A stretch of 13,889 bases of DNA from an uncultured archaeon (GTDB lineage Archaea > Aenigmatarchaeota > Aenigmatarchaeia > GW2011-AR5), in assembly GCA_964373695.1 (NCBI GenBank), contig CAYJVT010000011.1:8046-21934 (forward strand). Direction: 5' to 3'. This document shows, piece after piece, positions 1-13,889 of this stretch (within the stretch, counting starts at the first letter, position 1; each line of letters opens with the position of its first letter). Below the pieces are notes generated by a model that was not told the DNA's origin, did no database searches, and was given only the letters and a program-made list of their open reading frames with translations. The position numbers and the translations under genes are program-made.

Positions 1-196
1 CGCCGTCAAAGCTTTCATCTTCCAGTACGGCCGGGAGAACAAGGTATAAGGTCTGGTCCTGGCGGCCGTGATGTTGGCTTTCATTGAGTATGGCGACAAA
101 CACTTCATAATGAAATCCAGGACTCAGAGCTCTCTGGAGCGGTGACTTCACATCGTCGTCATCTGCCTTGGCGATTTCCTTGATGCCGAGGAGCAT
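1..196 (-). CDS. Possible 5' part of a hypothetical gene running off the left edge (MLLGIKEIAKADDDDVKSPLQRALSPGF...)
   Basis: Open frame from ATG at 196 to the window edge with GC-rich third positions. No RBS is visible, no family is recognised, and it abuts the first CRISPR repeat. Confidence 0.3.
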   Translation of the reverse strand, partial: MLLGIKEIAKADDDDVKSPLQRALSPGFHYEVFVAILNESQHHGRQDQTLYLVLPAVLEDESFDG

Positions 197-200
197 GGCT

Positions 201-378
201 CTTGCACGACATCCCACACCAATCTGGGATATGGAACTGGTGGATGGCGAGAGAGCCATCGGGAAGGACAGACCTTGCACGGACATCCCACACCAATCTG
301 AGATATGGAACTCAAGGGGGGAATAGAATATATGGAACCATCTTGCCAAGGGGAGATACTTGCACGACATTCCACACC
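201..378 (+). CRISPR. Degenerate CRISPR mini-array 1: full repeat 201-237, repeat with a 1-nt insertion 274-311, 3' repeat remnant ATATGGAAC 330-338, 5' half repeat 359-378
   Basis: CTTGCACGACATCCCACACCAATCTGGGATATGGAAC at 201-237 is identical to the repeat at 4166-4202. The 36-bp spacer spans 238-273. The second interval (312-358, 47 bp) contains a repeat 3' remnant. Confidence 0.9.
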
Positions 379-381
379 TAA

Positions 382-429
382 TGGCCTCTTCCAAGGCCAC
401 GAGCCGAGGCCAAGGCACTCGGCGAATCC
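382..429 (+). ncRNA. tracrRNA-like two-hairpin element, copy A1 (class alpha)
   Basis: GGCC-TCTTCCAA-GGCC, then GCCGAG-N9-CTCGGC, then GAATCC. Near-identical to 3758-3806. Loop TTCCA is complementary to TGGAA at the repeat 3' end. Confidence 0.7.
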
Positions 430-454
430 TATTACGTCTGCCAATATCCTTTCA

Positions 455-510
455 TGGCGTCTTCCAGCGCCAAGAGTTGAGTCTTCGGAACTCAACAAAT
501 CCCACACCAA
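455..510 (+). ncRNA. tracrRNA-like two-hairpin element, copy A2 (class beta)
   Basis: GGCG-TCTTCCAG-CGCC, then GTTGAG-N9-CTCAAC, then AAATCCCACACCAA. The final ATCCCACACCAA equals repeat nt 11-22. Stem sequences differ from A1 but pairing is preserved. Confidence 0.7.
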
Positions 511-525
511 GTAGTTTGAACAAAG

Positions 526-570
526 AGGCTGTTTCATTCAGCCTGATGGCGTCTCTTCGGTGACGCCGAC
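526..570 (+). other. Two-hairpin element B with similar architecture but a different loop
   Basis: AGGCTG-TTTCATT-CAGCCT (526-544) followed by GGCGTC-N8-GACGCC (548-567), in the 5' region of effector 1. Confidence 0.4.
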
Positions 571-604
571 GAAATAAATGAACGACCAACCACGGAGGAA
601 ATCC

Positions 605-2209
605 ATGAAGCCCGATTATCCGATCCTCAGCATCAAGATTCTTGTCAGCAGGATGGGAAGCGATTCAGACGACTTCTCCTTCCCCGGAAGAAAATCCCTT
701 TCCTTCATTCCGCGAGAAAGATTCGTCTCTTGTCTTTCCCGCATGCAGGAAGAAGTGTCAAGGCACTACAACCGCTGCATGAGGGAGATGTTCATTACAT
801 TCGCCAGTTCCAACAGGCTCCGGCAGTCAGACGTAACCCGGTGCACGAAGCCCGTGACGCCGGTTCTGGGGGCGTACATACGCAATGGCCTCGCCTCGAA
901 ACTGGCTGCAACTTTCCGCAGGCGGGAGATGGCCTTCGCTTCGGCTAGGCTGCCTTCGGCTAACAGCAGCCTTCCCGTCCCGTTCTCCGCGGGATTCTCC
1001 CTAGGCATGACTGACAGGGAAGAGTTTGCAGTCTGTCTGCCACTTCCCTCATCCTTCCTAGGCATGGAAGGGAAGAATATCCAGGTTCCCCTCATCGTCT
1101 CTACGAAGTCCCGCGAGAAGCGAGTCATGAGACAAAGGAGGAAAATGGGCAGCGACTGGCACGGGAAGTCCACGGACGAAGTGGTGATGGGGCTGAAGAG
1201 CGGAAGATACATGTCTTCCTACTGCGAGGTGTTCTGCCGCGACGGCAGGATATGGATAAGCCTCTCCGTGAAGTTGCGGAAGGCCCCATGCCCAGAATGC
1301 AGCAGCGATATGTGGACCGAGACGAAAACGACCAGATGCCTCTCCTGCCACTCGACTGGGAAGGTTGTTAAGGAAGACGAGAAGGGTAGGAAGAGGACGA
1401 TCTGCGAGGGCTGCGGCGAAAGCCATTTCGAGCCTCTCTATCGTTGCGGCAGTTGCGGCTTCAAGATTTACAAGGGCGGCCTTGACGAACTGAGCATTGT
1501 AGGTGATGGTCTCGATCCGGCCGTGACGGGCGGTATCAACTTCGGCGTCGGGAAGTTCGCCTGCTGCGCGACCAACTCGGGAGATGAACACTTCATCATC
1601 GGCGGGTCGGAGATTGTCAACCTCAACACGGAGTTTGCCGGCCGCCGCTGGGAGATGAGCAGGCAGAGCCGTGTCAACAGGGGGGGACGGGGCATTAAAT
1701 ACAAGTTCAGGCCCTACGAATCCATGTCCCGGCGCATGGACGAGAAGCGCAGGACCGTCATAAGGCAGATGGCTGCCGAGATAGTCCTCTTCTTCAGCGA
1801 GCAGCGGGCTTCCACCGTCTTCATGAACAGCATGAGAGGCGTCAAGGACTCCCCTGTTCCCTGGAATTTCTTCCAGATGTTCCAGATAAGGAACGTTCCT
1901 TATGGGGAGTTTATCGCTGCCATCAAGCACGCCCTCGCCAAGGAAGGCATCGCCAGCCTGTTCATTGACGAGAAGCAGTCGGAGGGCGAGAAGGTTGATT
2001 TCTTCGACTTCACTTCCCAGCTCTGCCACAGATGCGGCCATTGGAACAGGCACTTCACCTTCCAGTGGCGCCAGGAGAACGGCTTCCCGCCGTTCAGATG
2101 CAGCAGTTGCGGCAGAGAGTTCGACCCTGATTTCAATGCGGCCAAGCGCGCCTCCATGGGAGCAGATCACATCGCAGCTGTGGAGGGAATCGTGGCTCGC
2201 GACGAGTAA
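605..2209 (+). CDS. Cas12f/Cas14-like (TnpB-family) RNA-guided effector 1, predicted nuclease-dead, 534 aa
   Basis: GGAGG RBS at 594-598 before ATG 605. C-terminal RuvC-like layout: GGINFGVGKFACC (RuvC-I, Asn at the Asp position), STVFMNSM (RuvC-II, Asn at the Glu position), TSQLCHRCGH...CSSCG zinc finger, and DPDFNAA (RuvC-III). Extra 4xCxxC insertion before RuvC-I. Flanked by CRISPR arrays. Confidence 0.85.
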   Translation: MKPDYPILSIKILVSRMGSDSDDFSFPGRKSLSFIPRERFVSCLSRMQEEVSRHYNRCMREMFITFASSNRLRQSDVTRCTKPVTPVLGAYIRNGLASKLAATFRRREMAFASARLPSANSSLPVPFSAGFSLGMTDREEFAVCLPLPSSFLGMEGKNIQVPLIVSTKSREKRVMRQRRKMGSDWHGKSTDEVVMGLKSGRYMSSYCEVFCRDGRIWISLSVKLRKAPCPECSSDMWTETKTTRCLSCHSTGKVVKEDEKGRKRTICEGCGESHFEPLYRCGSCGFKIYKGGLDELSIVGDGLDPAVTGGINFGVGKFACCATNSGDEHFIIGGSEIVNLNTEFAGRRWEMSRQSRVNRGGRGIKYKFRPYESMSRRMDEKRRTVIRQMAAEIVLFFSEQRASTVFMNSMRGVKDSPVPWNFFQMFQIRNVPYGEFIAAIKHALAKEGIASLFIDEKQSEGEKVDFFDFTSQLCHRCGHWNRHFTFQWRQENGFPPFRCSSCGREFDPDFNAAKRASMGADHIAAVEGIVARDE

Positions 2210-2281
2210 ACTGCCACTTCCGCAGGCAAAAGCTGTGCTTTCGGGCATGGCAATTCTATGCGGAACAAACAAGGAGATCCT

Positions 2282-3652
2282 ATGCAAATTCTTCCGAGAT
2301 ACTTCAGGTTCCGTGTCACGGGCCCCGAAGGAATTTTCAGGGCCCTGTCGAAACTCAAGTCCGTGACCGTCAACGCCTTCAACACAGGCGTTGTCAGGCG
2401 TTATCATGGCGAGACACCCTTCCTTCCGGAAGAGCTGTTCGGCAATCCCATGCTGCTCTCGGGCATGAAATCCCAGCTCGCGGAGATGTACGACGATGAT
2501 GCCATCCAGAACGACCGCATCTCGCTTCCGACCCAGGCCTACGACAGGATGAGAGTGAGGTTCGAGTCCAAGCACGGCCTCATGCTAGAAAGGCGAGGCG
2601 ACAGGTACGCGCTCCTGCTCGTCTTCCCTGCCTTTTCGATCATGGAAGGCGACAAGGGAAAACTGGCCGAATTCTCCGGAGAATCTGCCGAACTCTCTGT
2701 AGAGATAAGCGGTTCTGTGAAAAGGCGAGACGGAAAATTCCAACCTGCTTCTCATCTCACAGAAGTCGCCTCGCGCATCATGGATGGCACCTACATCAGC
2801 TGCCGGTGCGAATTCTTCCACCATAGGTATCAGGGGTGGGTACTGAATCTGGTAACGTACAATCAGGGCATCGACTGCCTGGAGTGCGGAGCGGACTCTT
2901 GGGAAGAGGCTGGCGAAGTTGTCGTGTGCATGTCATGCGGCCATTCTTACAGTCAGGAAGTATTCTCCCGGATGATGGCGGAGAACCTGAAGCCTCTGCC
3001 CGATGTCAGCTGCGGCATCATGATAGGGCTTTCGACTCCTCTCATCTTCTCTTCCACCGGCCACGAGAGGCGCAGTGTATTCCCAGGAGAGGCTGAGCAC
3101 ATGAGCGGCGTCATCAGGGCCCGCGTCATGTTGCGCCACAAGGGTAACTGGAGCAGCTGGGAAGAAAGGTGGGAAAAAGCGGAAGCTGGTTACAGAGAAC
3201 GCGCCAGGAGAATCGCGGACGGCTGGCGGCGGGTAGTGTATGAACAGGGCGTGCGCAAGACGCGCGCCTCCTGCATCTGGATGCTGAGACATCCGGGAGA
3301 GTGGAATTACTTCACTTACAACCGGCTGCACTTCTTCGAGCCGTCCGATGTCATGGGAGAGGTAAGCAGTTGGCTGTCTTCCCCTCAACGGAAGCACGTG
3401 ATGGAAGTGAGGTTCATGGACGAGGAGTTTACGGAAAGGCATGAAAAACCTTTCGACCCCAGCATGCTGTTCCGTCTCTGCCACTCCTGCGGCAGGCTGT
3501 ATCCCTCTCTTCCCCATCCGCTGCCCAGAGACAAGCGCGGCCGGTTCCCTCTATTCGAATGCGTCTGCGGAACCAAGACGACGCTCGACGCCAATGCCGC
3601 CAAGAACCTTGCCGGCGGCGAGGAGACGATGGGAAAGATCGCTTCGCTGTAG
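2282..3652 (+). CDS. Cas12f/Cas14-like (TnpB-family) RNA-guided effector 2, predicted nuclease-dead, 456 aa
   Basis: AGGAG RBS at 2272-2276 before ATG 2282. N-terminal RYFRFRV strand, CGIMIGLSTPLIFS (RuvC-I, Met at the Asp position), SCIWMLRH (RuvC-II region without Glu), CHSCG...CVCG zinc finger, and LDANAAKNLA (RuvC-III, canonical DxNAAxNI/L). Extra CLECG...CMSCG ribbon. Confidence 0.85.
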   Translation: MQILPRYFRFRVTGPEGIFRALSKLKSVTVNAFNTGVVRRYHGETPFLPEELFGNPMLLSGMKSQLAEMYDDDAIQNDRISLPTQAYDRMRVRFESKHGLMLERRGDRYALLLVFPAFSIMEGDKGKLAEFSGESAELSVEISGSVKRRDGKFQPASHLTEVASRIMDGTYISCRCEFFHHRYQGWVLNLVTYNQGIDCLECGADSWEEAGEVVVCMSCGHSYSQEVFSRMMAENLKPLPDVSCGIMIGLSTPLIFSSTGHERRSVFPGEAEHMSGVIRARVMLRHKGNWSSWEERWEKAEAGYRERARRIADGWRRVVYEQGVRKTRASCIWMLRHPGEWNYFTYNRLHFFEPSDVMGEVSSWLSSPQRKHVMEVRFMDEEFTERHEKPFDPSMLFRLCHSCGRLYPSLPHPLPRDKRGRFPLFECVCGTKTTLDANAAKNLAGGEETMGKIASL

Positions 3653-3660
3653 AAAAACGG

Positions 3661-3691
3661 AAGGGCGGGCTTGAAAGGGGGCCCGCCCTTT
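3661..3691 (+). terminator. Strong GC hairpin 8 nt after the effector 2 stop: terminator, processing signal or 5' stem of the downstream RNA
   Basis: AAGGGCGGGC (3661-3670) pairs perfectly with GCCCGCCCTT (3681-3690). The U tail is only short, so termination may be leaky. Confidence 0.5.
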
Positions 3692-3693
3692 CA

Positions 3694-3742
3694 TGGCCTC
3701 TTCCAGGGCCATAAGTCGAGCTTACGAGACTCGACAAATCCC
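3694..3742 (+). ncRNA. tracrRNA-like two-hairpin element, copy A3 (class beta)
   Basis: GGCC-TCTTCCAG-GGCC, then GTCGAG-N9-CTCGAC, then AAATCCC. Preceded by CCTTTCA, exactly as A2 is. Confidence 0.72.
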
Positions 3743-3757
3743 TGCTTAATTGTACTC

Positions 3758-3806
3758 TGGCCTCTTCCAGGGCCACGAGCCGAGGCCAAGGCACTCGGCA
3801 AATCTC
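3758..3806 (+). ncRNA. tracrRNA-like two-hairpin element, copy A4 (class alpha)
   Basis: GGCC-TCTTCCAG-GGCC, then GCCGAG-N9-CTCGGC, then AAATCTC. The tail ATCTC is complementary to the GAGAT repeat variant of the adjacent array. Confidence 0.72.
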
Positions 3807-3871
3807 TGACCTACTGACAATGTTCTGCAGGAAATCGAGTGAAATGGTCGAAAATCGTCGAATCCACGGCT
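3807..3871 (+). promoter_or_regulatory. Putative leader of CRISPR array 2
   Basis: Non-coding stretch before the first repeat. It ends CACGGCT, and array 1 is preceded by CATGGCT. Confidence 0.45.
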
Positions 3872-4202
3872 CTTGCACGACATCTCACACCAATCTGAGA
3901 TATGGAACCCGAGCATAAGGAGCCTCAAAGCGCACACCAAGACGCACTTGCACGACATCTCACACCAATCTGAGATATGGAACCGTCGTTCCCACTATCA
4001 GTCCCCACGCACTCAAGCACTTGCACGACATCTCACACCAATCTGAGATATGGAACCGAATCCACGTGCAGACTTGCCATGACCCTCACTAACTTGCACG
4101 ACATCTCACACCAATCTGAGATATGGAACAGACATATTCAATTCGTCTGCTCGACGACCCCGCTACTTGCACGACATCCCACACCAATCTGGGATATGGA
4201 AC
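3872..4202 (+). CRISPR. CRISPR array 2: 5 repeats of 37 bp and 4 spacers (38, 36, 36, 36 bp)
   Basis: Repeats at 3872, 3947, 4020 and 4093 are CTTGCACGACATCTCACACCAATCTGAGATATGGAAC. The repeat at 4166 is the ATCCC/GGGAT variant. All spacers are unique. Orientation is inferred from the GGAAC 3' end, typical of type V-F repeats. Confidence 0.97.
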
Positions 4203-4315
4203 AAGCTTGGCCTCTTAGAGGCTCGTAATTCTCTAAAGGCTGAACTCCGGTAACCGAGAAGCAATCAAGAACGCCTTCCCATGGCGTTCTCCCCTTCCTG
4301 CATAAGGAGAAGAAC

Positions 4316-4474
4316 ATGCGGAAAGCCGTTCCATTCATCATTGCAGTTCTCGTCCCCGTCGGCTGCATCATCGCGATGCAGAACGGCATCCACATCAACG
4401 GCCAGGACGGCCTCTTCTGCTTGTCAGCGTTCCTCCTATGGAAGCTTGTCAGCATGAAAAAGGTAAGAGAATGA
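4316..4474 (+). CDS. Small hypothetical membrane protein, 52 aa (MRKAVPFIIAVLVPVGCIIAM...)
   Basis: AAGGAG RBS at 4304-4309, two hydrophobic segments, and an ATGA stop/start overlap with the next gene. Confidence 0.65.
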   Translation: MRKAVPFIIAVLVPVGCIIAMQNGIHINGQDGLFCLSAFLLWKLVSMKKVRE

Positions 4475-5007
4475 GCATGCAGAACCCATTCAGCACGCCC
4501 GAGCTGGTTCAGGCAGCGAGGAAGGAGGCCGATACGCTGGTGGACGAGTTCCTGCAGAACCCGGAAGACCCGGAGGTCGTGAACGACATCCTGCACTGTG
4601 GGGACGCCGAGATGTATTCGAAGTCCCTGTCGCTGCAGATGCTTGCCATGGGTGGAGGGTGTACAGAACATGAGGAGTTAAGTGCGGCCGAGCTGGAGAT
4701 TGCAGCAACCCGTCTGCAGGCGATGCTTCATACAGGAACGTTTCTGATGGAGCGGCTCGGGAGAGAGAAATTTCCCGAGGCGGCAAATATGAAGGACATC
4801 GTCAGAGCGTCCCATTTCATTGTTTGGAAGGCCCGTGACGATGTCGTTGAGATGCTCCATATGTCGGAGCAAGAGCCGGAGGAAGAAGTCGTCGGGACGG
4901 AAACGAACGAGGATGGGCCATCGGAGACATCGCTGACACCTCGGGCTGTTCTACTGTTTCTCATCCTGTTCGCCTGCATCGTCATCCTCATCAGGACATG
5001 CGGCTAG
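4471..5007 (+). CDS. Hypothetical helical protein with an acidic linker and C-terminal membrane anchor, 178 aa
   Basis: ATGA overlap start at 4471. C-terminal AVLLFLILFACIVILI transmembrane segment. Confidence 0.75.
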   Translation: MSMQNPFSTPELVQAARKEADTLVDEFLQNPEDPEVVNDILHCGDAEMYSKSLSLQMLAMGGGCTEHEELSAAELEIAATRLQAMLHTGTFLMERLGREKFPEAANMKDIVRASHFIVWKARDDVVEMLHMSEQEPEEEVVGTETNEDGPSETSLTPRAVLLFLILFACIVILIRTCG

Positions 5008-5076
5008 GGAAAGGAGTCACGAACACGGATTCATATCTCCCCATTTTCCAACCTTCTCCCCAGAAGAGAGCGGGAA

Positions 5077-5277
5077 ATGAAACGCAAGTATAACTGCCCT
5101 GCATGTGGCGGCTTCCTCTCTTTGGATAAACAGGAGAAGAATGAAGAGGAACTTCAGGTTGACGCCACGTGCCGTGCCTGCGGATTCAGGGGAATGGCAA
5201 TCCTCGCGATAAACAACGGCATCGTGAGATGGCCGGAGCGTATAAGATTCGAGAAGCTTGATGTACTCGTCGTGTAG
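5077..5277 (+). CDS. Small zinc-ribbon protein, 66 aa
   Basis: CPACG...CRACG pair. Confidence 0.72.
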   Translation: MKRKYNCPACGGFLSLDKQEKNEEELQVDATCRACGFRGMAILAINNGIVRWPERIRFEKLDVLVV

Positions 5278-5325
5278 CCAAGCGGAATTCACACTCACTC
5301 GCACAGTTGAATAGGGAGAAACATC

Positions 5326-5595
5326 ATGGGGAAGGATGGCCTTACAGCCGGTGGAGTGCAGGTGTCGCTCAGGGCCGTGGTGGAGCGGCTTGACGATTTC
5401 ATCGAGGAAGAAATCGAGCCGTCAAGGAGGGATGACGGCAAGGCAGAGGCCGCCTACAACCTCAGGAGAGGATTTGCCGCCAGATTACCCGGAGGCGGCG
5501 GCGACGTGACGGAAGCGTGGCCGCTCAAAAGGGCGGAGAGCTTCTGCAGGAGCTACGGCGGCACGGTGGAGGGGCTCCGGGGAGCTGAAGCATGA
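5326..5595 (+). CDS. Hypothetical protein, 89 aa
   Basis: GGGAG RBS upstream and an ATGA overlap with the next ORF. Confidence 0.65.
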   Translation: MGKDGLTAGGVQVSLRAVVERLDDFIEEEIEPSRRDDGKAEAAYNLRRGFAARLPGGGGDVTEAWPLKRAESFCRSYGGTVEGLRGAEA

Positions 5596-5702
5596 AGGCC
5601 GGGAAGCCGAAGGACCGGAAGGAAGAGAAGGGCAACGGCCGCGACCGCGCGTGCATCAGGCGCTCCAGCAGGCACGTGGCCCGCAACGGCAGACGCCACT
5701 GA
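5592..5702 (+). CDS. Small basic hypothetical protein, 36 aa (MKAGKPKDRKEEKGNGRDRACIRRSSRHVARNGRRH)
   Basis: Fills the gap exactly: ATGA overlap at 5592-5595, and its stop is followed by the GGAGG RBS of the next gene. Confidence 0.45.
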   Translation: MKAGKPKDRKEEKGNGRDRACIRRSSRHVARNGRRH

Positions 5703-5713
5703 GGAGGAAGCTC

Positions 5714-5965
5714 ATGAACGCATCATTCGCTTCGCTCGTTACCCTCGACGCTCTCTTCGTCATGTTCTGCGGCCAGCAGCTCGTCAAGCCGGAAGTAAAC
5801 ATGAAGGTGAGGGACGACGACGGCGAGCGGCTTGTGAAGGCGCAGCTTCGGGTCATCGTGCCCTGCGAGATGAAGATGCCCGCGGACAAGTGGATTCTCG
5901 TGATGGAAGTTGTTGAGGACCCGGCCGGCAAACTCGTCGGCATAATGCTGAAAGGGAGGACGTGA
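5714..5965 (+). CDS. Hypothetical protein, 83 aa
   Basis: GAGGAGG RBS at 5701-5707 favours ATG 5714 over the upstream GTG. GC3-rich codons. Confidence 0.7.
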   Translation: MNASFASLVTLDALFVMFCGQQLVKPEVNMKVRDDDGERLVKAQLRVIVPCEMKMPADKWILVMEVVEDPAGKLVGIMLKGRT

Positions 5966-6067
5966 GAGGAAGGAGAGCGCATCAACACGAGAGGAAAGTA
6001 GTTTGTTCATGAAGCACTGCCAGAGCAAGAAACCTGTAAGGAGGAAGAAGTCAGGAGACGTAGCAAT

Positions 6068-6322
6068 ATGGAAAGCATAGAGAGCTGGTGGCGGGTTTTC
6101 AGATACTTGCAGCAACGGCGACCCGGCAGGCCGGATATCGGATGCCCGACAAACAGGCTGATGACGTGTCTGATAACGGGCCGCGTCGGGAAAAAAGCCA
6201 AGGACAGGCTGAAGGCACATATCTTGGTGTGCGAGTCATGCCTGTTCTTGGTGGTGAAGGTCGCCATTTCACGATCCCAATGGGACAAAACTTCCGAAGA
6301 AGAGAAAGCACATGTCAGATGA
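6068..6322 (+). CDS. Stand-alone zf-HC2/ZAS (zinc-binding anti-sigma) domain protein, 84 aa
   Basis: C-x24-H-x3-C-x2-C motif (GCPTNRLMTCLITGRVGKKAKDRLKAHILVCESC). AGGAG upstream. No transmembrane or sensor domain. Confidence 0.65.
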   Translation: MESIESWWRVFRYLQQRRPGRPDIGCPTNRLMTCLITGRVGKKAKDRLKAHILVCESCLFLVVKVAISRSQWDKTSEEEKAHVR

Positions 6323-7022
6323 GAAGGACAGGAGCTTCGCGAGAGGCATCGCGCACCACTTCAACAATGCCCTTCATGGCATCTTGGGGAATCTTCAGCT
6401 TGTCATGAAGCACGAGCTTCCCGAAGAGGCCGCGGAGTCAGTCAGGGTCGCTGATAAATCGGCCACGAGACTTGCCGCTCTTGTCAGGCAGATGCTCGAC
6501 TTCATGAAAGCCGGGGACATCGCGCCGAGAGAGTTCCCCATATCGGGTGTCGGCAGGCTCATGGAAGACGAGTTCAAGAGCTTGGCCGGCCGTATCCAAC
6601 TCATCATCGACCTCCCGGCCGTCGTATTCACAGGAGACGCCGACAAGATCGTACTCATGCTGCGCCTGCTTGTCCAGCGCTCGGTGGAATCGCTGGAAGG
6701 CAGGGAAAACGGTCGGATAGTAGTGAGCGCGTTTCCAACAAGAAAGGAAGTGTCCGGGAAACGCAGGGATTTCCTCGTCTTCAGCGTCACGGACAACGGC
6801 CCGGCCATTCACGAGAACATGCTGGGTCACGTCTTCGAGCCGTTCTTCAACCCGACGGAACCGAACATACCAGGCGACCTGAAACTCGCCACTGTCAGCG
6901 CGATAGCGGCAGCGCACGGAGGATGGGCCGAATGCAATTCGGGCAATGCGGGGGCCATGTTCTCGGTGTACCTGCCGGCGGCAAAGCAAGAACCGGCTAC
7001 ATCGGAGAATCACATCGGCTGA
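6312..7022 (+). CDS. Sensor-less histidine-kinase-like protein (HisKA + HATPase_c), catalytically degenerate, 236 aa
   Basis: H-box GIAHHFNNAL, D-box DNGPAI, F-box FEPFF and terminal AHGG are recognisable. N-box asparagines and the G2 box GxGLG are missing (LMLRLLVQRS; PGDLKLA). Confidence 0.85.
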   Translation: MSDEKDRSFARGIAHHFNNALHGILGNLQLVMKHELPEEAAESVRVADKSATRLAALVRQMLDFMKAGDIAPREFPISGVGRLMEDEFKSLAGRIQLIIDLPAVVFTGDADKIVLMLRLLVQRSVESLEGRENGRIVVSAFPTRKEVSGKRRDFLVFSVTDNGPAIHENMLGHVFEPFFNPTEPNIPGDLKLATVSAIAAAHGGWAECNSGNAGAMFSVYLPAAKQEPATSENHIG

Positions 7023-7096
7023 AAGGACACCGGCACTAAGAACGAAAAACGAAGTGATTGCAGTAAACGCAGTTCACATTGACGGAGGGAATTGAA

Positions 7097-7675
7097 GTGA
7101 AAGCAGCAAGAACAATATTCTGCATCGTCATCGCCGCCCTGCTCTGCGCTGTTTGGGTTTCGCATCTCCACAAGAACTGGATGGTTGGCCTTGTCGGCGG
7201 CGCTGGAGCCGGCTTCCTGGTGGACTTTTTCGCTTTTGTATTGCCGGAATCCAGGAACGACAGGAAGAGGTTCCGCAAGGTCTTCGGCTTCTATCCCAAT
7301 CCTGGCGGTGATGCAGTTACGAGAGAAGCCGAGCTCAGGATCATCGGGCACAAAAGGGCAGTTCTCATCGAAGAGCTGGCCCGTGTGATGAGGATAATCG
7401 AACAGCTCGAGGCGAACTTCCGGATAACAAATTCGAATCGCGGGGAAATAATCGGAAGCCACACAAGGAAGTTGACGACTCAGCGAGAAGCGGCTTTTGC
7501 TATCCACCGGCAAATGGAGGAGATCGAGTGCCTGGCAATCAGGTTCGGGTACTGGGCCGCCCCTGAACCGAAGGTAGATGCGGTTGAGGCGCCGGCTCTG
7601 GTCACAGGCTCTAACGGCGACATCCCGAAGCCTGAGCCCGCCACAACTGTTTCACAACAGCCTCGGGTAGCCTGA
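7097..7675 (+). CDS. Hypothetical membrane protein with two N-terminal hydrophobic segments and a coiled-coil-like cytoplasmic part
   Basis: GGAGGG RBS at 7084-7089 favours GTG 7097. IFCIVIAALLCAVWV and LVGGAGAGFLVDFFAFVL hydrophobic stretches. Confidence 0.72.
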   Translation: MKAARTIFCIVIAALLCAVWVSHLHKNWMVGLVGGAGAGFLVDFFAFVLPESRNDRKRFRKVFGFYPNPGGDAVTREAELRIIGHKRAVLIEELARVMRIIEQLEANFRITNSNRGEIIGSHTRKLTTQREAAFAIHRQMEEIECLAIRFGYWAAPEPKVDAVEAPALVTGSNGDIPKPEPATTVSQQPRVA

Positions 7676-7702
7676 AGCTGCCGTCACGAAAGGAGCATTC
7701 CC

Positions 7703-7819
7703 ATGCTACTGTTCGCCGTCTTCGTCGTTGCTGTCGCAGTGCTCGCCCTCCTGTTCATATGGTGGGAAGAGCACAAGAGGAAGAGAAACAGGCAGCGCCC
7801 GTCGAGGATGTACGAGTAG
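7703..7819 (+). CDS. Small single-pass membrane protein, 38 aa (MLLFAVFVVAVAVLALLFIWWEEHKRKRNRQRPSRMYE)
   Basis: AAGGAG RBS at 7690-7695. Transmembrane helix followed by a basic tail (positive-inside pattern). Confidence 0.65.
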   Translation: MLLFAVFVVAVAVLALLFIWWEEHKRKRNRQRPSRMYE

Positions 7820-7997
7820 AGAAGGCCGCGGATGAAGAGGGGGCCCCGGTAATCCTTTGTTGAGAGGCGAAGGATGTGGGACATGTGGGCGTCCGCCGGG
7901 GCCCTCCAAAACCGAAACCGGTAGTAGTGAACCGAAGAAAGGAGGCAGCTCTTGCCTACATAAGAAGAGAAGTTAACCCGAACGAGGAGAACACACC

Positions 7998-8957
7998 GTG
8001 TTCTACATCCTGAGCATGTTCATAGCAGCTGCGTTCTTCTTCTTCATGAGGTGGTATGGGAAATTCATCGCCGAGAAGGGCACTTCTTCGCTGCCGCGGC
8101 TCTTGGGCAGGAAAATCAGGAAGGCCGCCGCCGCCATCTTGGTGGTGTGGGCCGGACTTCACACCATTCTCGGCTCGGTGAACCAGATTCCGGCAGGCAA
8201 TGTCGGCGTGGTCTACGAATTCGGCGCTATCGTCGACCAGGTTGGTGAAGGCCTGCAGTTCGTGGCGCCATGGAAGTCGGTGACAGTGGCCAGCATTCAG
8301 GTACAGGGTCACAAGTTCAATGACGCGAACAAAAACACTCTCACCGCTTTCAGTGAGGAGACACAGGAGGTCCTCATCTGGGCGACGCTCAACATCCGGG
8401 TGTCGCCAAGGGCAATCCAGGATCTGTACCGCACCGTCGGCCCGAACTACTTCGACATCGTGGTTGCTCCCCGCGTCGCCCAGAGCTTCAAGGATGAGAC
8501 GGTGAAGTACAAGAGCGTTGACATTGCTCCGAACCGCGAGGGCATCCGCCAGAAGGTGCGTGAAAAGCTCGAGAGCGAGCTGAGCTCCGTGTATTCCATC
8601 GAGGTTGTCGACATGCTCCTCGACAATATCGACTTCCAACCCGGCTTCAAGGCGGCCATTGAGGCCAAGCAGATTGCCACCCAGCAGGCCCTGGAGGAGG
8701 AGCAGAAAGTTGTCAAGGCGCGGCACATGGCGGAGCAGGCCGTCGAAAAGGCCATTGGTGAAGGCAATGCCATCCTGGCAGTGGCTGAGAAACAGGCCGA
8801 AGCCAACCTGAAGCTCAGCCAATCCCTGACGCCGGCCCTGATCCAGTACACCATGGTTCAGAGGCTCAGCGACAAGATTGGGGTGATGATACTGCCGCCG
8901 GGTCAGAACTTCATCCTGGGCGCTGATGTCCTGAGGGGAGCTTCGATGGTGCCCTGA
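7998..8957 (+). CDS. SPFH (band 7/prohibitin) family membrane protein, 319 aa
   Basis: GAGGAG RBS, N-terminal TMs, IPAGNVGVVYEFG...GEGLQFVAPW, and the C-terminal AAIEAKQIATQQA...EAEQ-type coiled coil typical of prohibitin-like SPFH proteins. Confidence 0.92.
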   Translation: MFYILSMFIAAAFFFFMRWYGKFIAEKGTSSLPRLLGRKIRKAAAAILVVWAGLHTILGSVNQIPAGNVGVVYEFGAIVDQVGEGLQFVAPWKSVTVASIQVQGHKFNDANKNTLTAFSEETQEVLIWATLNIRVSPRAIQDLYRTVGPNYFDIVVAPRVAQSFKDETVKYKSVDIAPNREGIRQKVREKLESELSSVYSIEVVDMLLDNIDFQPGFKAAIEAKQIATQQALEEEQKVVKARHMAEQAVEKAIGEGNAILAVAEKQAEANLKLSQSLTPALIQYTMVQRLSDKIGVMILPPGQNFILGADVLRGASMVP

Positions 8958-8977
8958 GCCCAACCTACCCACAGCAG

Positions 8978-9026
8978 AAAGGAGAAGATGAAGCCGAAAG
9001 GAGCCATGAAGGCGTCTTCTCTTTTT
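8978..9026 (+). terminator. Probable intrinsic terminator after the SPFH gene
   Basis: AAAGGAGAAGATG (8978-8990) pairs with CGTCTTCTCTTTT (9013-9025) using G-U pairs, with a U-run at 9022-9026. The loop is unusually long. Confidence 0.45.
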
Positions 9027-9084
9027 GCCTGATTTGTCAATTAAACGGGATGCAAAGTTATGGGCTTTGCATATGAAGTAGTCA

Positions 9085-9132
9085 AGAAACCTTATCTTTA
9101 AATAATTGGATATTAATATCATGTTAAGGTGA
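9085..9132 (+). promoter_or_regulatory. Archaeal-style promoter/operator/SD of the TA operon
   Basis: TTTAAATA at 9097-9104 (TATA-like), perfect palindrome GATATTAATATC at 9109-9120 (candidate antitoxin operator), and AGGTGA SD at 9127-9132. Confidence 0.5.
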
Positions 9133-9137
9133 TATTA

Positions 9138-9371
9138 ATGGTGAAGGCAATTGTAGAGCTGAACGAACATGCAAACAGGGTTATCAATGTAGTAAAGGCC
9201 AAGTATGACCTTAAGGATAAGTCTGCCGCGATAAATACTATGGCTCTTCAGTACGAGCAGGAGATTTTAGAGCCCGAATTAAGACCAGAGTTTATCGAGC
9301 GCCTCAAGAAAACAGAGAAAGAGCCCACGAAGAAAGTAAAAGACTTTGCCAGAGAGTTTGATATTGAATGA
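9138..9371 (+). CDS. DUF2683-family antitoxin, 77 aa
   Basis: MVKAIVEL...NVVKAKYDLKDKSAAIN...EILEPELRPEFIERLKK resembles archaeal DUF2683 proteins. It sits directly upstream of, and overlaps (ATGA), a RelE-type toxin. Confidence 0.8.
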   Translation: MVKAIVELNEHANRVINVVKAKYDLKDKSAAINTMALQYEQEILEPELRPEFIERLKKTEKEPTKKVKDFAREFDIE

Positions 9372-9634
9372 GCTATGAGGTTGAAATCAGAGACCATCTA
9401 TACGAGCTCTTCGAGAAAATGAAGAAAAAGGAAAGACAGAAACTAGAAATAATCAACAAAAAAGTCAAAGAAATCAGCGAAGAGCCTTATAGGTACAAGC
9501 CACTCAAGGCTCCGATGCAACATATGCGCCGTGTACATATAGCCGGAAGCTTTGTTCTCATATTCTCTGCAGATGAGAAAAGAAAAACACTTATTTTAGA
9601 AGAATTTACCCATCACGATGAGGCTTACAGGTGA
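9368..9634 (+). CDS. relE: RelE/ParE-superfamily type II toxin (archaeal RelE/YafQ-like mRNA interferase), 88 aa
   Basis: YKPLKAPMQHMRRVHIAGSFVLIF...FTHHDEAY motif pattern, size and basic composition, and TA operon layout. Confidence 0.88.
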   Translation: MSYEVEIRDHLYELFEKMKKKERQKLEIINKKVKEISEEPYRYKPLKAPMQHMRRVHIAGSFVLIFSADEKRKTLILEEFTHHDEAYR

Positions 9635-10061
9635 ATTGCAAAGCCAGAGTTCTTTCATAATCTGCCAGTAGTCCCACTACAATAGTCTTTAATATATTCG
9701 ACTGACAAGTATCTGGTAACTGATATGTGGGGTGTGAGTCCCCTGACAGCCCTCCGAACTGAAGATACATCCATTACCTTCCAGCCGCGACGAACCTAAA
9801 TAGATTCCGTGGTTGGCAGGACATCAAAAACACCCGCGCCCCACAGGGACGCGTTGATGCACCGCCGCGAGCCGGCTGAAAGGAGATGGAATCACCTCCG
9901 GAACGGAATTCATTTTTCATATTCCAGATTACGTCAAATTCGTCCTGAAACGCACGAAGGACACTGGAAAGACAAATCCTATAAGAGAGAATCGGCATTC
10001 AAGTCCGTTCTTCTAGAATGCTGCTCTCATTTACCAGAGATGAACGAAAGGAAGGCGAACC

Positions 10062-11816
10062 GTGAAAAAGATGGCCAACATTGTCCTGTCAATACTCGCG
10101 GTCACAGGACTTGACGCGATGAGGACAGACGCTTCAGCCCAGACACAATCTGGGATGACTATCACGACAAATTTTCCTGACACGCTCACGACAGGTATAG
10201 AGTTTTTGAGTGTGTATATTCAATCTGGCACAAGCGTATCATGCAGATACTCTTATACCACGGATTCGTACAACTCCATGGACCCCAGGACGACTCTGAA
10301 ATACGGTCCATACATCTGGCTTGTTTCAGGATTCGCCTCCGGCGAGAACACTATCAATGTCGCCTGCATGGACAACAGAGGCAATGAGGGGAAGCTGACA
10401 ATAAGGTTCTTTGTTGGACCGCTACTGTCAACGAATTTCCCCAAAATTATCACGACAACCAAGGCTTTGTTGCACGTGAATGCCACTTCCGGCTTCTCAT
10501 GCAGATACTCCACTGAAACGGACTCCTACGACTCCATGGAGGGTGTAACGTTAACAAACTCTCCATACGTATGGCTCATCACAGGCCTGACGAACGGCGA
10601 GAAGACGGTTTACGTCGCCTGCACGGATGGCAGGGGCAATGAACACAAGCTGACGGTGAGGTTTGTCGTGGACATACCTGGACAGGGAAGTCCAGTCTCT
10701 GGCGCCGGGGGCGGCAGGCAAGTACCTCCTTCGGAGCGCGGAATCATTGTCGCCAAGTTCGATACTGTGTCCCTCAACGGCTCTGTAACTACGGACGAGA
10801 TAAGCTACAAGGTCTTGGTGCCGAGAACTTCGGTTCCACTGAACCAGACATTCCCGATCAGAATCCAGATTCTCGGGGCCGACCGTTTGTTCGAAAGAGG
10901 CAGTCCCAGGAGGATGCTGATTCCCGGCGGGTTGGCCGTGTATGTATACGACGACGCGGGATACATGGCAGCCCCATCAACCATGCGGGTTTACAACTCA
11001 TATACAAAGTCTTACGAAGACATCAGGCCTCCCGAGCCTTTGGAAGAGGCTATTCTGGGGTTCGTGCGTGGAGGGCTGGGACTTTTTCTGGGCGTAGCAT
11101 CGACATTGGTAAACGTGCACGGGTTCGGAATAGCCGCGAATCTCGCGTACCATGCAGGCCAGGCTGCAGGCACGGCTCTTCTTGGAGAGAGCCCAAGGAG
11201 CACAGTTGAAAAGCAGAACCGCCTTCTGGAGATAGAAAGATATCTCGACAAATATGAGATACCGGTCTATTCAACACGGGTTGTGGATACAGGGGGATTT
11301 GAGTTCGAGGTCCCCCTTTCCTTCAGCAGGAGACAGACGTCCGTCTATATAGCAATAGGCCAGGTGATGACATCACGCAAATGGTATGATTCCCGTCTCG
11401 GGCTGGAAACCAAATCATATCCACCCAGGCTTATCATACTGCCCCTGGACAATTTGCGTGACCTGAGTTCCCCGCCGCCTGCAGGTCGTATGGCTGCGAT
11501 AGATGCATCTCCTGACAATGCAGCTTTTTCAGACAACCCGGCGTCTAGTGGCCTGTCCAATTCCCCGAACCCCTTCAACTCCTCGACGCAGATCACCTTC
11601 AAACTGGACGAGGAGCAGGATGTGACACTCGAGATACGTTCCATGACCGGCCAGCTTGTCAGGACGCTCGTCGATTCGAGGATGGAAGCCGGCATCCACG
11701 CCATTCATTGGGACGGAAAAAACGGCGCTGGCGACAACGTGGCATCAGGTATCTATCTGTGCCGGCTGAAGGCTGACAATCGGACAACAATGAGTAAGAT
11801 GACACTGATCCAGTAA
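10062..11816 (+). CDS. Secreted/surface protein with two tandem Ig-like repeats and a C-terminal FlgD_ig/T9SS type A sorting-like domain, 584 aa
   Basis: Signal peptide MKKMANIVLSILAVTGL...ASAQ. C-terminus NSPNPFNSSTQITFKL...G.LVRTLVD....AGIHAIHWDGKN..G..VASGIYLCRL is characteristic of FCB-superphylum secreted proteins. Confidence 0.88.
   Translation: MKKMANIVLSILAVTGLDAMRTDASAQTQSGMTITTNFPDTLTTGIEFLSVYIQSGTSVSCRYSYTTDSYNSMDPRTTLKYGPYIWLVSGFASGENTINVACMDNRGNEGKLTIRFFVGPLLSTNFPKIITTTKALLHVNATSGFSCRYSTETDSYDSMEGVTLTNSPYVWLITGLTNGEKTVYVACTDGRGNEHKLTVRFVVDIPGQGSPVSGAGGGRQVPPSERGIIVAKFDTVSLNGSVTTDEISYKVLVPRTSVPLNQTFPIRIQILGADRLFERGSPRRMLIPGGLAVYVYDDAGYMAAPSTMRVYNSYTKSYEDIRPPEPLEEAILGFVRGGLGLFLGVASTLVNVHGFGIAANLAYHAGQAAGTALLGESPRSTVEKQNRLLEIERYLDKYEIPVYSTRVVDTGGFEFEVPLSFSRRQTSVYIAIGQVMTSRKWYDSRLGLETKSYPPRLIILPLDNLRDLSSPPPAGRMAAIDASPDNAAFSDNPASSGLSNSPNPFNSSTQITFKLDEEQDVTLEIRSMTGQLVRTLVDSRMEAGIHAIHWDGKNGAGDNVASGIYLCRLKADNRTTMSKMTLIQ
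10164..10673 (+). repeat. Tandem intragenic domain duplication of ~83 aa (10164-10418 and 10428-10673)
   Basis: Both copies read TNFP...SCRYS..TDSY.SM......PY.WL..G...GE.T..VAC.D.RGNE.KLT.RF.V. Confidence 0.85.
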
Positions 11817-12209
11817 TCGGCGGCATGATATTCATGAGGATGTCACAGGCCGCGTCTGACGGAAATCCTGCCGCCCTTAGCCGAAAGGAGGTGCGTCAAG
11901 CCCATATAACATGATATAACATGACGCCTGTCAATTTTTGTGGAGCTATAGGCTCCGTAGGCCTGAAAGCAGAAATCCCAGTCAGACGTGGTGAAATCGG
12001 AGATTCGGCATGAAGAGCACCACTCTGAACCAGACCCGTCGCACCCGGCACATACCATCGCACGACGTCCTGAAGAAGGTGACGGTGCAGGGCCCGGCGG
12101 CAACAGCCCATCCGACAAGAAGGCAGCAGACGAGGTGACGTCTCCGGCGATGACCTCCAACAACAGGAGCCTGCGCACGGCCGAGGACCGTGTAGGCAGG
12201 TGCTGAACA

Positions 12210-12249
12210 GGCAGGGAGCTTCTCGGCTACCTCATAGGAGTTCCCTGCC
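12210..12249. other. 11-bp stem hairpin whose 5' arm recurs at 12810-12825
   Basis: GGCAGGGAGCT pairs with AGTTCCCTGCC (one G-U). There is no U-tract on either side. Confidence 0.45.
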
Positions 12250-12413
12250 GGTGTCCGCCTCAACCCCAACAGGAGGGCTAGAACCGCACGGCGGGCGTGA
12301 GACCACAGACGCATTCCATATACGCGTTTGCATTCCGCAGGATTCAACCTAAGGCAGCCGCAGCTGAAGGTGAATCACATCCGATATCCCCATCGGGTTT
12401 TGCAGAGGGTCTC

Positions 12414-12701
12414 ATGCCCAGGGCAGGGCCGGAATGTCAATGGCAGAAAGTTCCCGGTACATCCGGCCCTGCCCACAAAATCCGAAAGGAGTTCAACCTC
12501 ACAGAATGGGACATAAGAGAAACAAAGAGGAAGAAAGCGAAAAAATTCCGCAGGAAAATGGCGGAGCTGGACGTGGAGATTGACAAGGCTCAGGCTGCCG
12601 CCATGAGAAGCCTCGCTGACATCGAGCGTCTTGATAAGGAGATGGAAGAAGACAGCCCTGAGTGGAGGGCGTTCCTAGAAGAGGTCGATGCCAAGGCATA
12701 G
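12414..12701 (+). CDS. Hypothetical basic/acidic helical protein; start uncertain
   Basis: The C-terminal ~60 aa (KRKKAKKFRRKMAELDVEIDKAQ...) look like a genuine coiled coil. GAGGG lies upstream of ATG 12414. Confidence 0.45.
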   Translation: MPRAGPECQWQKVPGTSGPAHKIRKEFNLTEWDIRETKRKKAKKFRRKMAELDVEIDKAQAAAMRSLADIERLDKEMEEDSPEWRAFLEEVDAKA

Positions 12702-13146
12702 TCCAGGAAGAGGGCTTCCTGAGTATAGTCCGGCATGGGGTTGCGGATCTGACCCATGCATTCAGCCGAGGACAACAATCCGCTGCCGCAGTTGCAGTTA
12801 ACACTCACTAGGCAGGGAGCTTCTCCTCGGCCAGATCGTTGACACGATCCCACCGGCCGGGAAGAGACTGCTCAACTGAGGGCCTGCCGCGCGCCGGAGA
12901 GCCATGCGATTCAATTCTCCGGCTGCAGTTCACCGGTTAACCGTTCGTGAAAGGGGGTGAGTCCAAAGGGCACTCAAGTAAGGCCCACTGCATCCGCAAG
13001 GATGTACGGTCGCTCGTCGAGATACAGACCGAAGACGCCTGATAATTCCCGCTAGCGAAGATGAGGAGCCACAAGACCACTCTTCGGCTCCAAGAAGTCT
13101 TCCAACAGCCGGATTAGAAGGCGTCTCATGACGCGGAGGAACCGCC

Positions 13147-13278
13147 ATGCTGTCGAATTATCCGAACCCGTTCAACAGGATGTTGGGCACCGGCTACATC
13201 GACACCAAGAGCTTGGTGTTCCATCCCGAACGGCGCGATGAAATCAGCCTCTTCACCAAGCTGGTGACGTCGGCGTAG
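13147..13278 (+). pseudogene. 43-aa mini-ORF beginning with the T9SS/FlgD CTD signature (MLSNYPNPFN...), a probable gene fragment
   Basis: GGAGGA RBS at 13135-13140. NYPNPFN motif without the rest of the domain. Confidence 0.4.
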
Positions 13279-13506
13279 TTTCTGCATCAAGCCGACAAGA
13301 GGCAAGCAGAAGAAGGCGGGCGGAGCTCTCATGACAATGCCATGGAAGGCTTGTATGCAGTTTTGAGAGCCCCGCCCGCCGAGTTTTCTTGCTGTATACC
13401 GCACCAAGGATATGGGTTCGAACACAATTCCAGAAAATGAAGGAGAATTTTCTATGATGGTTCTGCGGGCGGCAAACCATCAACCCCCAACAACGAGGTA
13501 GAAGCC

Positions 13507-13719
13507 ATGAGCAAAGAATGGCACATCATCAGCGCAGAAACAGACACAACCGATGCGATGGCAGTGGGCGTTGCCAATGCCTTACTGCCAGGCCCGGATG
13601 TGGAACCGATCAAGACCTACACAGTGGAACACGAAGGATCCGGGGAAACCCGGCAGGTCGTCGCAAGGGACGAAACCCAGCTCGGCGAAAAGATCGCTGA
13701 GGGGGAATTCTGGAAGTAA
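13507..13719 (+). CDS. Small acidic hypothetical protein, 70 aa
   Basis: GAGGT RBS upstream, natural-looking composition, and a downstream terminator. Confidence 0.65.
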   Translation: MSKEWHIISAETDTTDAMAVGVANALLPGPDVEPIKTYTVEHEGSGETRQVVARDETQLGEKIAEGEFWK

Positions 13720-13824
13720 CGTTGTACCTGCCGCCCGCAGCACAGACGCATTATTAATAGAGTCTGCAGGCTGAGTATGAAGACGTACCCCCCTCATTTT
13801 TGTCCACTCACCCCCATTTGCGTC

Positions 13825-13857
13825 GGGAGAACGTCAGCGAACGCTCTCCCTTTTTTT
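13825..13857 (+). terminator. Rho-independent terminator
   Basis: GGGAGAACGT/ACGCTCTCCC stem (one mismatch) followed by T7. Confidence 0.75.
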
Positions 13858-13889
13858 GTTCATTCTGTCAATTTAAAGGGATATAAACA

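Follow-up and report, generated by a model that had tools for sequence, protein, structure and literature searches.

Two Cas12f-like genes with altered RuvC sites

The stretch of DNA analyzed here (the window) comprises 13,889 nucleotides of an uncultured archaeon (contig CAYJVT010000011.1 of assembly GCA_964373695.1, positions 8,046 to 21,934 of the forward strand). Its left part holds a CRISPR locus with two genes for proteins of the Cas12f type, referred to as effector 1 and effector 2, in each of which the Asp of RuvC-I and the Glu of RuvC-II are replaced. The two open reading frames (ORFs) are co-oriented, are separated by a gap of 48 nt and lie between two CRISPR arrays, A and B, that carry the same 37-nt repeat (Table 1). 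They are the only complete Cas12f-like genes in the assembly, and the two arrays, of one repeat family placed on both sides of the effectors, are the only ones assembled in the genome. Four of the five repeats of array B are identical; array A is degenerate. A two-hairpin element of about 47 nt is present in four copies that flank the effector genes. All cells of its proposed helices (44 of 44) are paired, three of the pairs being compensatory, and neither the element nor the RNA of the locus had a match in Rfam.

Table 1. Positions of the effector genes, their RuvC residues, the CRISPR arrays and the hairpin elements in the window.
Feature	Position	Strand	Remarks
CRISPR array A	201..378	+	repeats 201-237 and about 275-311 (one indel), then a degenerate stretch and a 5' half-repeat, 359-378
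Two-hairpin RNA-like element, two copies	382-428, 455-501 (382..501)	+	candidate guide-scaffold or tracr-like RNA
Effector 1	578..2209	+	543-aa Cas12f1 (Cas14a)-clade protein with altered RuvC site; phmmer, PF07282, model with predicted local distance difference test (pLDDT) 81.6
Effector 1 Asn321 (AAC)	1538..1540	+	RuvC-I Asp position
Effector 1 Asn417 (AAC)	1826..1828	+	RuvC-II Glu position
Acidic insertion in effector 1, following RuvC strand beta5	1967..2005	+	begins Asp464-Glu465; shared only by effector 2 and P0102
Effector 1 Asp518 (GAT)	2129..2131	+	retained RuvC-III Asp
Effector 2	2258..3652	+	divergent protein of 464 aa with a Cas12f fold; 456 aa in the public gene call, with Met9 as its start
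Effector 2 Met255 (ATG)	3020..3022	+	RuvC-I Asp position; Leu in P0102
Effector 2 Leu343 (CTG)	3284..3286	+	RuvC-II Glu position; Leu in P0102
Acidic insertion in effector 2, following beta5	3419..3457	+	Asp388-Glu389-Glu390 onward; confidently predicted helix
Effector 2 Asp444 (GAC)	3587..3589	+	retained RuvC-III Asp
Two-hairpin RNA-like element, two more copies	3694-3740, 3758-3804 (3694..3804)	+	
CRISPR array B	3872..4202	+	five 37-nt repeats, four spacers of 36-38 nt
Spacer B1	3909..3946	+	38/38 match to own chromosome, G000:C3:33740-33777

A phmmer search of the Protein Data Bank matched effector 1 to Un1Cas12f1 (7l48) with an E value of 4e-29, and the alignment pairs N321 with D326, N417 with E422 and D518 with D510. 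Effector 1 scores above the cut-off of PF07282 (39 bits), and its model places Asn321 and Asn417 at the predicted ends of strands 313-321 and 411-416. The exhaustive HMMER search for its relatives, which covered 1.84 billion representatives, returned 121 proteins, the best of them at 31% identity; word-index searches found no effector 1 relative. In a MAFFT alignment of the 30 nearest full-length relatives the RuvC-I position is Asp in 26, His in three and Glu in one, and the RuvC-II Glu is kept in 29, a column that is Glu in 102 of 108 relatives. Effector 1 departs from its family in more than the catalytic residues: it retains 27 of 40 well-conserved columns, has lost the other 13 and sits on a long branch. 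Among the distant Cas12f/TnpB-like relatives we also observed a clade (P0081, P0121, P0116, P0099, P0097, P0079, P0078, P0069, P0065 and others) with a conserved Gly-Ile-Asn-Arg-Gly-Ile motif, in which Asn replaces the RuvC-I Asp and both the Glu and the RuvC-III Asp are kept.

Effector 2 is only 23% identical to effector 1 and is barely detectable against the Protein Data Bank by sequence; its PF07282 score of 21.6 bits falls below the cut-off. The top Foldseek matches of its AlphaFold2 model (pLDDT 83.8) were Cas12f structures, the first of them Un1Cas12f1 (E value 5.5e-17). In this model Met255 ends the strand 247-255 and Leu343 directly follows the strand 337-342, the same predicted placement as that of N321 and N417 in effector 1. 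The original prediction had placed substitutions at 1538-1540, 1826-1828 and 3020-3022, and both the coordinates and the codons proved correct. It had also read the IWMLRH segment of effector 2 as devoid of Glu; Leu343 indeed occupies the end of the RuvC-II strand in the model and is matched by Leu in the one known relative of effector 2. The alignment of effector 1 to Un1Cas12f1 and the strand ends in the effector 2 model put the altered residues at the canonical RuvC-I and RuvC-II positions. Both effectors retain the RuvC-III Asp-x-Asn-Ala-Ala motif and the four cysteines that serve as zinc ligands of the C-terminal TNB domain, as had been claimed. Their architecture is TnpB-like, the TNB zinc ribbon interrupting the RuvC domain.

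The effector gene pair was found in two further independent assemblies. The Logan assembly of ERR4904391 is 100% identical to positions 625-3901 of the window, and the ERR3478686 assembly has a gene for an identical effector 2 protein, preceded directly by a 534-aa gene that includes a Cas12f TNB domain. Because these independent assemblies agree, the altered codons are not assembly errors.

Persistence and history of the altered sites

A single relative of effector 2 is known, P0102, from a contig of SRR22388346 in Logan. The two proteins share 40% identity along their full length; the ORF of P0102 is intact, and P0102 has Leu at both the RuvC-I and the RuvC-II positions, with the RuvC-III Asp and the zinc ligands kept. 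A gene for a ketol-acid reductoisomerase and one for a PIN protein are its neighbours, and no effector 1-like gene lies directly upstream. The word-index search with effector 2 returned only effector 2 itself, a profile built from effector 2 and P0102 retrieved nothing new, and the scanned metagenome contigs and genome contigs held no relative. With two members among billions of proteins, the effector 2 type is extremely rare. Because P0102, at this distance and with an intact frame, is also non-acidic at the two positions, the altered site is older than the divergence of effector 2 and P0102. Neutral decay would not yield such a pattern, and the comparison of the two sequences supports maintenance of effector 2. 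The original prediction had attributed the long uninterrupted frames of both paralogs to selection rather than decay; that part of it stands for effector 2, with its non-acidic relative of intact ORF, and is presumed for effector 1, which is without a close relative.

Effector 1, effector 2 and P0102 have further changes in common. An acidic insertion of 11-12 residues directly follows RuvC strand beta5 in all three and is missing in the 105 other relatives. It begins with Asp-Glu in effector 1 and with Asp-Glu-Glu in effector 2 and P0102, and it gives a spacing of 27-28 residues, compared to 16 in 99 of 108 relatives. In the three proteins, Ala or Pro stands in place of a Lys that 94% of relatives conserve. 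The approximately unbiased (AU) test does not reject monophyly of the three (p 0.49, with a log-likelihood difference of 0.64). A quick maximum-likelihood tree set effector 1 apart from the effector 2 clade; all three proteins sit on long branches in it and their placement is unreliable. As this tree suffers from long-branch problems, we judged the history by the AU test and the shared insertion. The simpler and most likely history, as read from these sequences, is that one inactivation, accompanied by the acidic insertion, preceded the duplication, and that the freed positions drifted afterwards.

Independent loss of the catalytic residues in the two paralogs after duplication, as originally proposed, is in our estimate unlikely. 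The residues that replace the acidic ones do differ (Asn and Asn in effector 1, Met and Leu in effector 2), the quick tree keeps effector 1 and the effector 2 clade apart, and a zinc ribbon that both effectors carry before RuvC-I (Cys-Pro-x-Cys...Trp) is also found in P0008, a Cas12f1 of the active type with Asp, Glu and Asp (L033:6001-7869). However, the beta5 insertion, which is absent from P0008, and the loss of the Lys are rare changes that unite effector 1, effector 2 and P0102; the AU test does not reject their monophyly; and the long branches deprive the tree of weight. P0008 may be the nearest active relative of both effectors. Together with P0003, the other of the nearest active relatives, it is found in a canonical cas1-cas2-cas4-cas12f locus.

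A self-matching spacer and proposed binding without cleavage

Spacer B1 of array B matches the host chromosome over its entire length. The match lies on the sense strand of a gene for a 68-aa C2H2 zinc-finger protein, at nt +64 to +101 of the coding sequence, and a CRISPR RNA made from this spacer would thus pair with the template strand. The protospacer is flanked on its 5' side by gtcgTTT. The protospacer-adjacent motif (PAM) of Cas12f is T-rich and is located on the 5' side, which this flank fits. The zinc-finger gene is present in 22 of 26 related genomes, with genes for the ribosomal proteins L13 and S9, a replication factor C-like AAA+ protein and RNase P p30 as its neighbours, and the protospacer with its flanks is identical in a genome of the same genus (G001). 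B1 is the one spacer of six with a match to a host gene, and this match is within the coding region, not the promoter. The other spacers had no match in the own genome or in 70 genomes of the order, and spacers B2-B4 and A1 had no exact 24-nt match in viral contigs. A system that cuts should not tolerate the B1 match; a dead nuclease would, and so would a silent locus.

We consider it moderately probable that the locus is a type V-F CRISPR system of the Cas12f1/Cas14a clade with a duplicated effector that acts as a nuclease-dead, RNA-guided DNA binder. This proposal draws on the substitutions in both proteins, on their Cas12f fold, on the altered site that persists in the effector 2 lineage, on the arrays, and on the full-length self-match with its T-rich flank. 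In the mechanism that we envisage, the effectors would assemble on a guide RNA as a dimer of the Cas12f type, possibly as an effector 1/effector 2 heterodimer, and the dimer would recognize DNA next to a PAM, where it would form an R-loop but make no cut. Its effect would come from occupancy, as a block of transcription or replication at the target. Among the targets would be at least one gene of the host, the C2H2 zinc-finger gene to which B1 matches, through template-strand pairing inside its coding region.

Several observations weigh against this proposal. A self-targeting spacer is equally expected for a silent or defunct system, and the silencing of a gene that is conserved across the order could be costly. 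For effector 1, with no relative closer than 31% identity, selection is only inferred. Asn also stands at the RuvC-I position of 12 among 108 distant relatives, with the Glu and the Asp retained in them, and these sequences suggest that Asn at this position may not always denote a dead enzyme. The conserved Asp-Glu(-Glu) directly after beta5 in effector 1, effector 2 and P0102 is a possible source of carboxylates. RNAduplex scans for the anti-repeat of a trans-activating CRISPR RNA (tracrRNA) gave no clear candidate. Lastly, an effector 1-like gene is absent directly upstream on the P0102 contig, which weakens the notion of an obligate heterodimer.

The beta5 motif raises the prospect that the site is rearranged and not dead, with the acidic residues of the insertion and the RuvC-III Asp forming an alternative metal site, such that the effectors would cut or nick nucleic acid, perhaps with altered specificity. 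The motif sits at the place of the catalytic Glu in RuvX-family enzymes. The original prediction had named other acidic residues in the active site as a point against it, and this motif is a candidate for such residues. The insertion with its Asp-Glu start is conserved in all three proteins and missing from the 105 relatives, the RuvC-III Asp is strictly kept, and the distant Asn-Glu-Asp clade lends the idea some plausibility, as does the compensating Glu described for rearranged RuvC-II sites of TnpB and Cas12 proteins, which has been likened to the beta5 Glu of RuvX (PMC10691335, section 8). The rearrangements on record nevertheless keep the RuvC-I Asp, at which Asn, Met or Leu is found here, and Met and Leu cannot bind metal; the nearby conserved Lys has also been lost in all three proteins; and the full-length B1 match with a PAM, located in a conserved chromosomal gene of the consensus assembly, should not be tolerated by a DNA cutter. 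We regard such a rearranged nuclease as very unlikely. The acidic insertion beside the active site thus gives a specific hypothesis, by which it would be either a structural plug or a rearranged site.

A defunct remnant, which would neither bind nor cleave and for which B1 would be neutral, with the real work left to an intact type V-F system at another place in the genome, is quite unlikely in our assessment, though a number of features are in keeping with it. Degraded systems are classically marked by self-targeting spacers (PMC6990116). Array A is degenerate, effector 1 has a long branch with 13 of 40 conserved columns lost, and the effector 2 type is exceedingly rare. The cas1-cas2-cas4 adaptation module that is typical of V-F1 was not found within the window; these genes are located on another contig, C13, beside a different, truncated Cas12f2-like gene. 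Against decay, both frames are open over 543 and 464 codons, and effector 2 and P0102 have diverged to 40% identity without a stop or a frameshift, with conservation of the zinc ligands, the RuvC-III motif and the elements of the dimer interface. Four repeats of array B have stayed identical, and the four hairpin elements remain paired by means of compensatory changes. Adaptation could be provided to the locus in trans from C13.

The C13 genes are on the minus strand (G000, L014:2-3153), with cas1 at 2137-3153, cas2 at 1836-2132 and cas4 at 1249-1932. The 421-aa ORF that follows cas4 (2-1264) is cut by the contig end and has a weak match to the NCBIfam model for Cas12f2 (E value 1.8e-5). Mre11/Rad50-like genes adjoin this cas locus. 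This is probably a second type V-F system, the array of which was not assembled. We also considered positions 1-190 of the window as the continuation of the truncated C13 effector gene and rejected this on the basis of composition and of the lack of a matching frame.

A further observation concerns the stretch at 359-525, in which two hairpin elements come after the 5' half-repeat (359-378) and sequence resembling the 3' half of the repeat (about 500-525) comes after them. This has the look of a repeat that the hairpin modules split in two. The sequence after this stretch had no genomic match, and neither had the stretches beside the hairpin elements, which were considered as possible fixed guides.

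We modeled the two effectors as a heterodimer, for which the interaction prediction score from aligned errors (ipSAE) was 0.71, compared to 0.01 for the best control. The mark applied to this score is reached by 58 of 80 solved complexes and by two of 110 mismatched pairs; the contact agreement of the runs was at least 61% and the partner pLDDT at least 76. The predicted interface is near-symmetric and involves residues 61-77 and 120-130 of effector 1 and residues 35-49 and 83-98 of effector 2, which in each protein are the equivalent helix of the recognition (REC) lobe and an S-L-P loop. The Cas12f dimer-interface elements are thus predicted to be intact in the effectors. The score indicates that the dimer surface of the family is kept in both proteins, not that they prefer each other, and it may reflect their likeness to solved homodimers. 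Of the RuvC sites of the Cas12f homodimer, just one does the cutting (PMC12255294). Since both paralogs are altered here, a dimer of any combination would lack a canonical RuvC site.

In the more specific version of the proposal, the locus would encode an obligate heterodimeric dCas12f, in which the asymmetric homodimer was split by duplication into two dead, specialized subunits, and which would serve a DPANN-like archaeon, or the island that it carries, as a programmable repressor of the zinc-finger gene and of invaders. We offer this version tentatively and hold it to be rather doubtful. A natural tandem or heterodimeric Cas12f was not found in the literature, our coverage of which is incomplete.

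Relation to known systems and genomic setting

Un1Cas12f1, also known as Cas14a.1 (type V-F1; 7l48, 7c7l), is the closest characterized counterpart, being the best sequence match of effector 1 and the best fold match of effector 2. The likeness extends to the TNB zinc ribbon, the RuvC-III motif, an adjacent CRISPR array with 37-nt repeats, the T-rich 5' flank of the single protospacer found, and the predicted dimer formed through REC-lobe elements; the small-genome archaeal host also conforms to what was reported for Cas14. In contrast to Un1Cas12f1, the RuvC-I Asp and the RuvC-II Glu are replaced in both genes (giving Asn-Asn-Asp and Met-Leu-Asp), and two genes diverged to 23% identity take the place of one. 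The window proteins additionally have the zinc ribbon before RuvC-I and the acidic insertion after beta5, and their locus is without cas1-cas2-cas4; no clear anti-repeat or tracrRNA was found in it, and four short two-hairpin elements are present instead.

Natural nuclease-dead forms of Cas12f, TnpB and Cas12m act by binding (PMC13472631, PMC10691335), and a natural nuclease-dead Cas12k and TldR are known too. The natural Cas12f derivatives with an inactivated RuvC, termed dCas12f, are bacterial and come mainly from Bacteroidetes; C-terminal truncations remove part of their RuvC site, most are linked to rpoE or to genes for helix-turn-helix (HTH) proteins, and some keep CRISPR arrays, with guides that match host (efflux) promoters and suggest repression (PMC13472631). 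The effectors described here differ from dCas12f in their intact C-terminus, with the RuvC-III Asp and the zinc ribbon in place, in the archaeal host, in the duplication of the gene and in the position of the self-target inside a coding region, and no sigma factor or HTH family was found in the window. Cas12m (type V-M) and TldR (TnpB-like nuclease-dead repressors) resemble the system proposed here: they descend from TnpB or Cas12, bind DNA under RNA guidance and silence by occupancy, and RuvC has been gradually or completely inactivated in them. They belong to other clades, however, are each encoded by one gene and do not build on the Cas12f dimer; TldR moreover uses a fixed omega-RNA guide, as opposed to a CRISPR array. 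Altered catalytic sites are on record within branches of Cas12f (PMC10691335). The rearranged TnpB and Cas12 proteins of the RIIr groups have, like the present effectors, lost the RuvC-II Glu and have acidic residues beside beta5, but they keep the RuvC-I Asp (PMC10691335); Altae-Tran and colleagues likened the rearranged TnpB sites to the arrangement of the RuvX family, with its catalytic Glu at beta5 (PMC10691335, section 8). What sets the present locus apart from these cases is the combination of an archaeal Cas14a-clade origin, a duplicated effector with both copies altered, an intact C-terminus and a natural self-target. It is most likely a new archaeal two-subunit variant alongside dCas12f, Cas12m and TldR.

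The nuclease-dead relatives of Cas12 and TnpB are a growing class of RNA-guided regulators, of which the examples that we found in the literature are bacterial and consist of a single gene. If the proposed function is correct, the class would extend to small-genome archaea and to the Cas14a clade, and with a compact pair of separately encoded Cas12f protomers one could test directly how labour is divided within the dimer. The B1 self-match with its PAM provides a natural, ready target for a repression assay.

The locus is situated in a segment of distinct character. Positions 1-9100 of the window, which hold the CRISPR locus, had no DNA match in two genomes of the same genus and have a guanine plus cytosine (G+C) content of 54-58%, compared to about 48% for the genome. 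Positions 9100-13889 are syntenic with the same-genus genomes, at a G+C content of 42-55%. Match and composition suggest that the left 9 kb are an acquired island, the left end of which would be hidden by a scaffold gap. Gross mis-binning of the CRISPR contig was considered and rejected, as the syntenic part is contiguous with the locus; a chimeric join between the locus and the syntenic flank may exist. The other genes of the island include co-oriented genes for small proteins without a known family, a sensor-less histidine kinase and an SPFH protein.

These neighbours bear on the idea that the dead effectors are a targeting module for another activity, the partner being encoded among the co-oriented downstream genes of the island or elsewhere. 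There are precedents in Cas12k, which works with a Tn7-like transposase, and in dCas12f with sigma-E (PMC13472631, PMC10691335), and the placement of the locus in a G+C-rich stretch of about 9 kb that is foreign to the same-genus genomes, together with the small-protein, kinase and SPFH genes, would suit such a module. Yet the families detected in the window include no transposase, sigma factor, HTH protein, integrase or nuclease, and no partner is conserved, the neighbours on the P0102 contig being different ones. We hold this recruitment to be highly improbable.

The genome itself comprises 1.02 Mb in 60 contigs and is 91% complete; those of its relatives range from 0.4 to 1.2 Mb. Its small-subunit rRNA scored best with the archaeal model, and we infer that the host is a small-genome, DPANN-like archaeon. 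At the edge of the island, in the stretch of lowest G+C content in the window, the gene for a DUF2683 protein (9129-9371) shares 4 nt with that for a YafQ/ParE-like toxin (9368-9634), and 9129-9634 is likely a toxin-antitoxin pair. The gene at 10062-11816 encodes a 584-aa protein of secreted appearance with matches to FlgD-Ig and to Por_Secre_tail, the latter a sorting signal of type IX secretion, which is unusual for an archaeon. On contig C12 (16799-22150), the archaeal small-subunit rRNA model matched in three separate pieces: only 1139 nt account for positions 1-1478 of the model, and another two fragments are found up to 5 kb downstream. This arrangement suggests that the rRNA gene has insertions or is oddly assembled.

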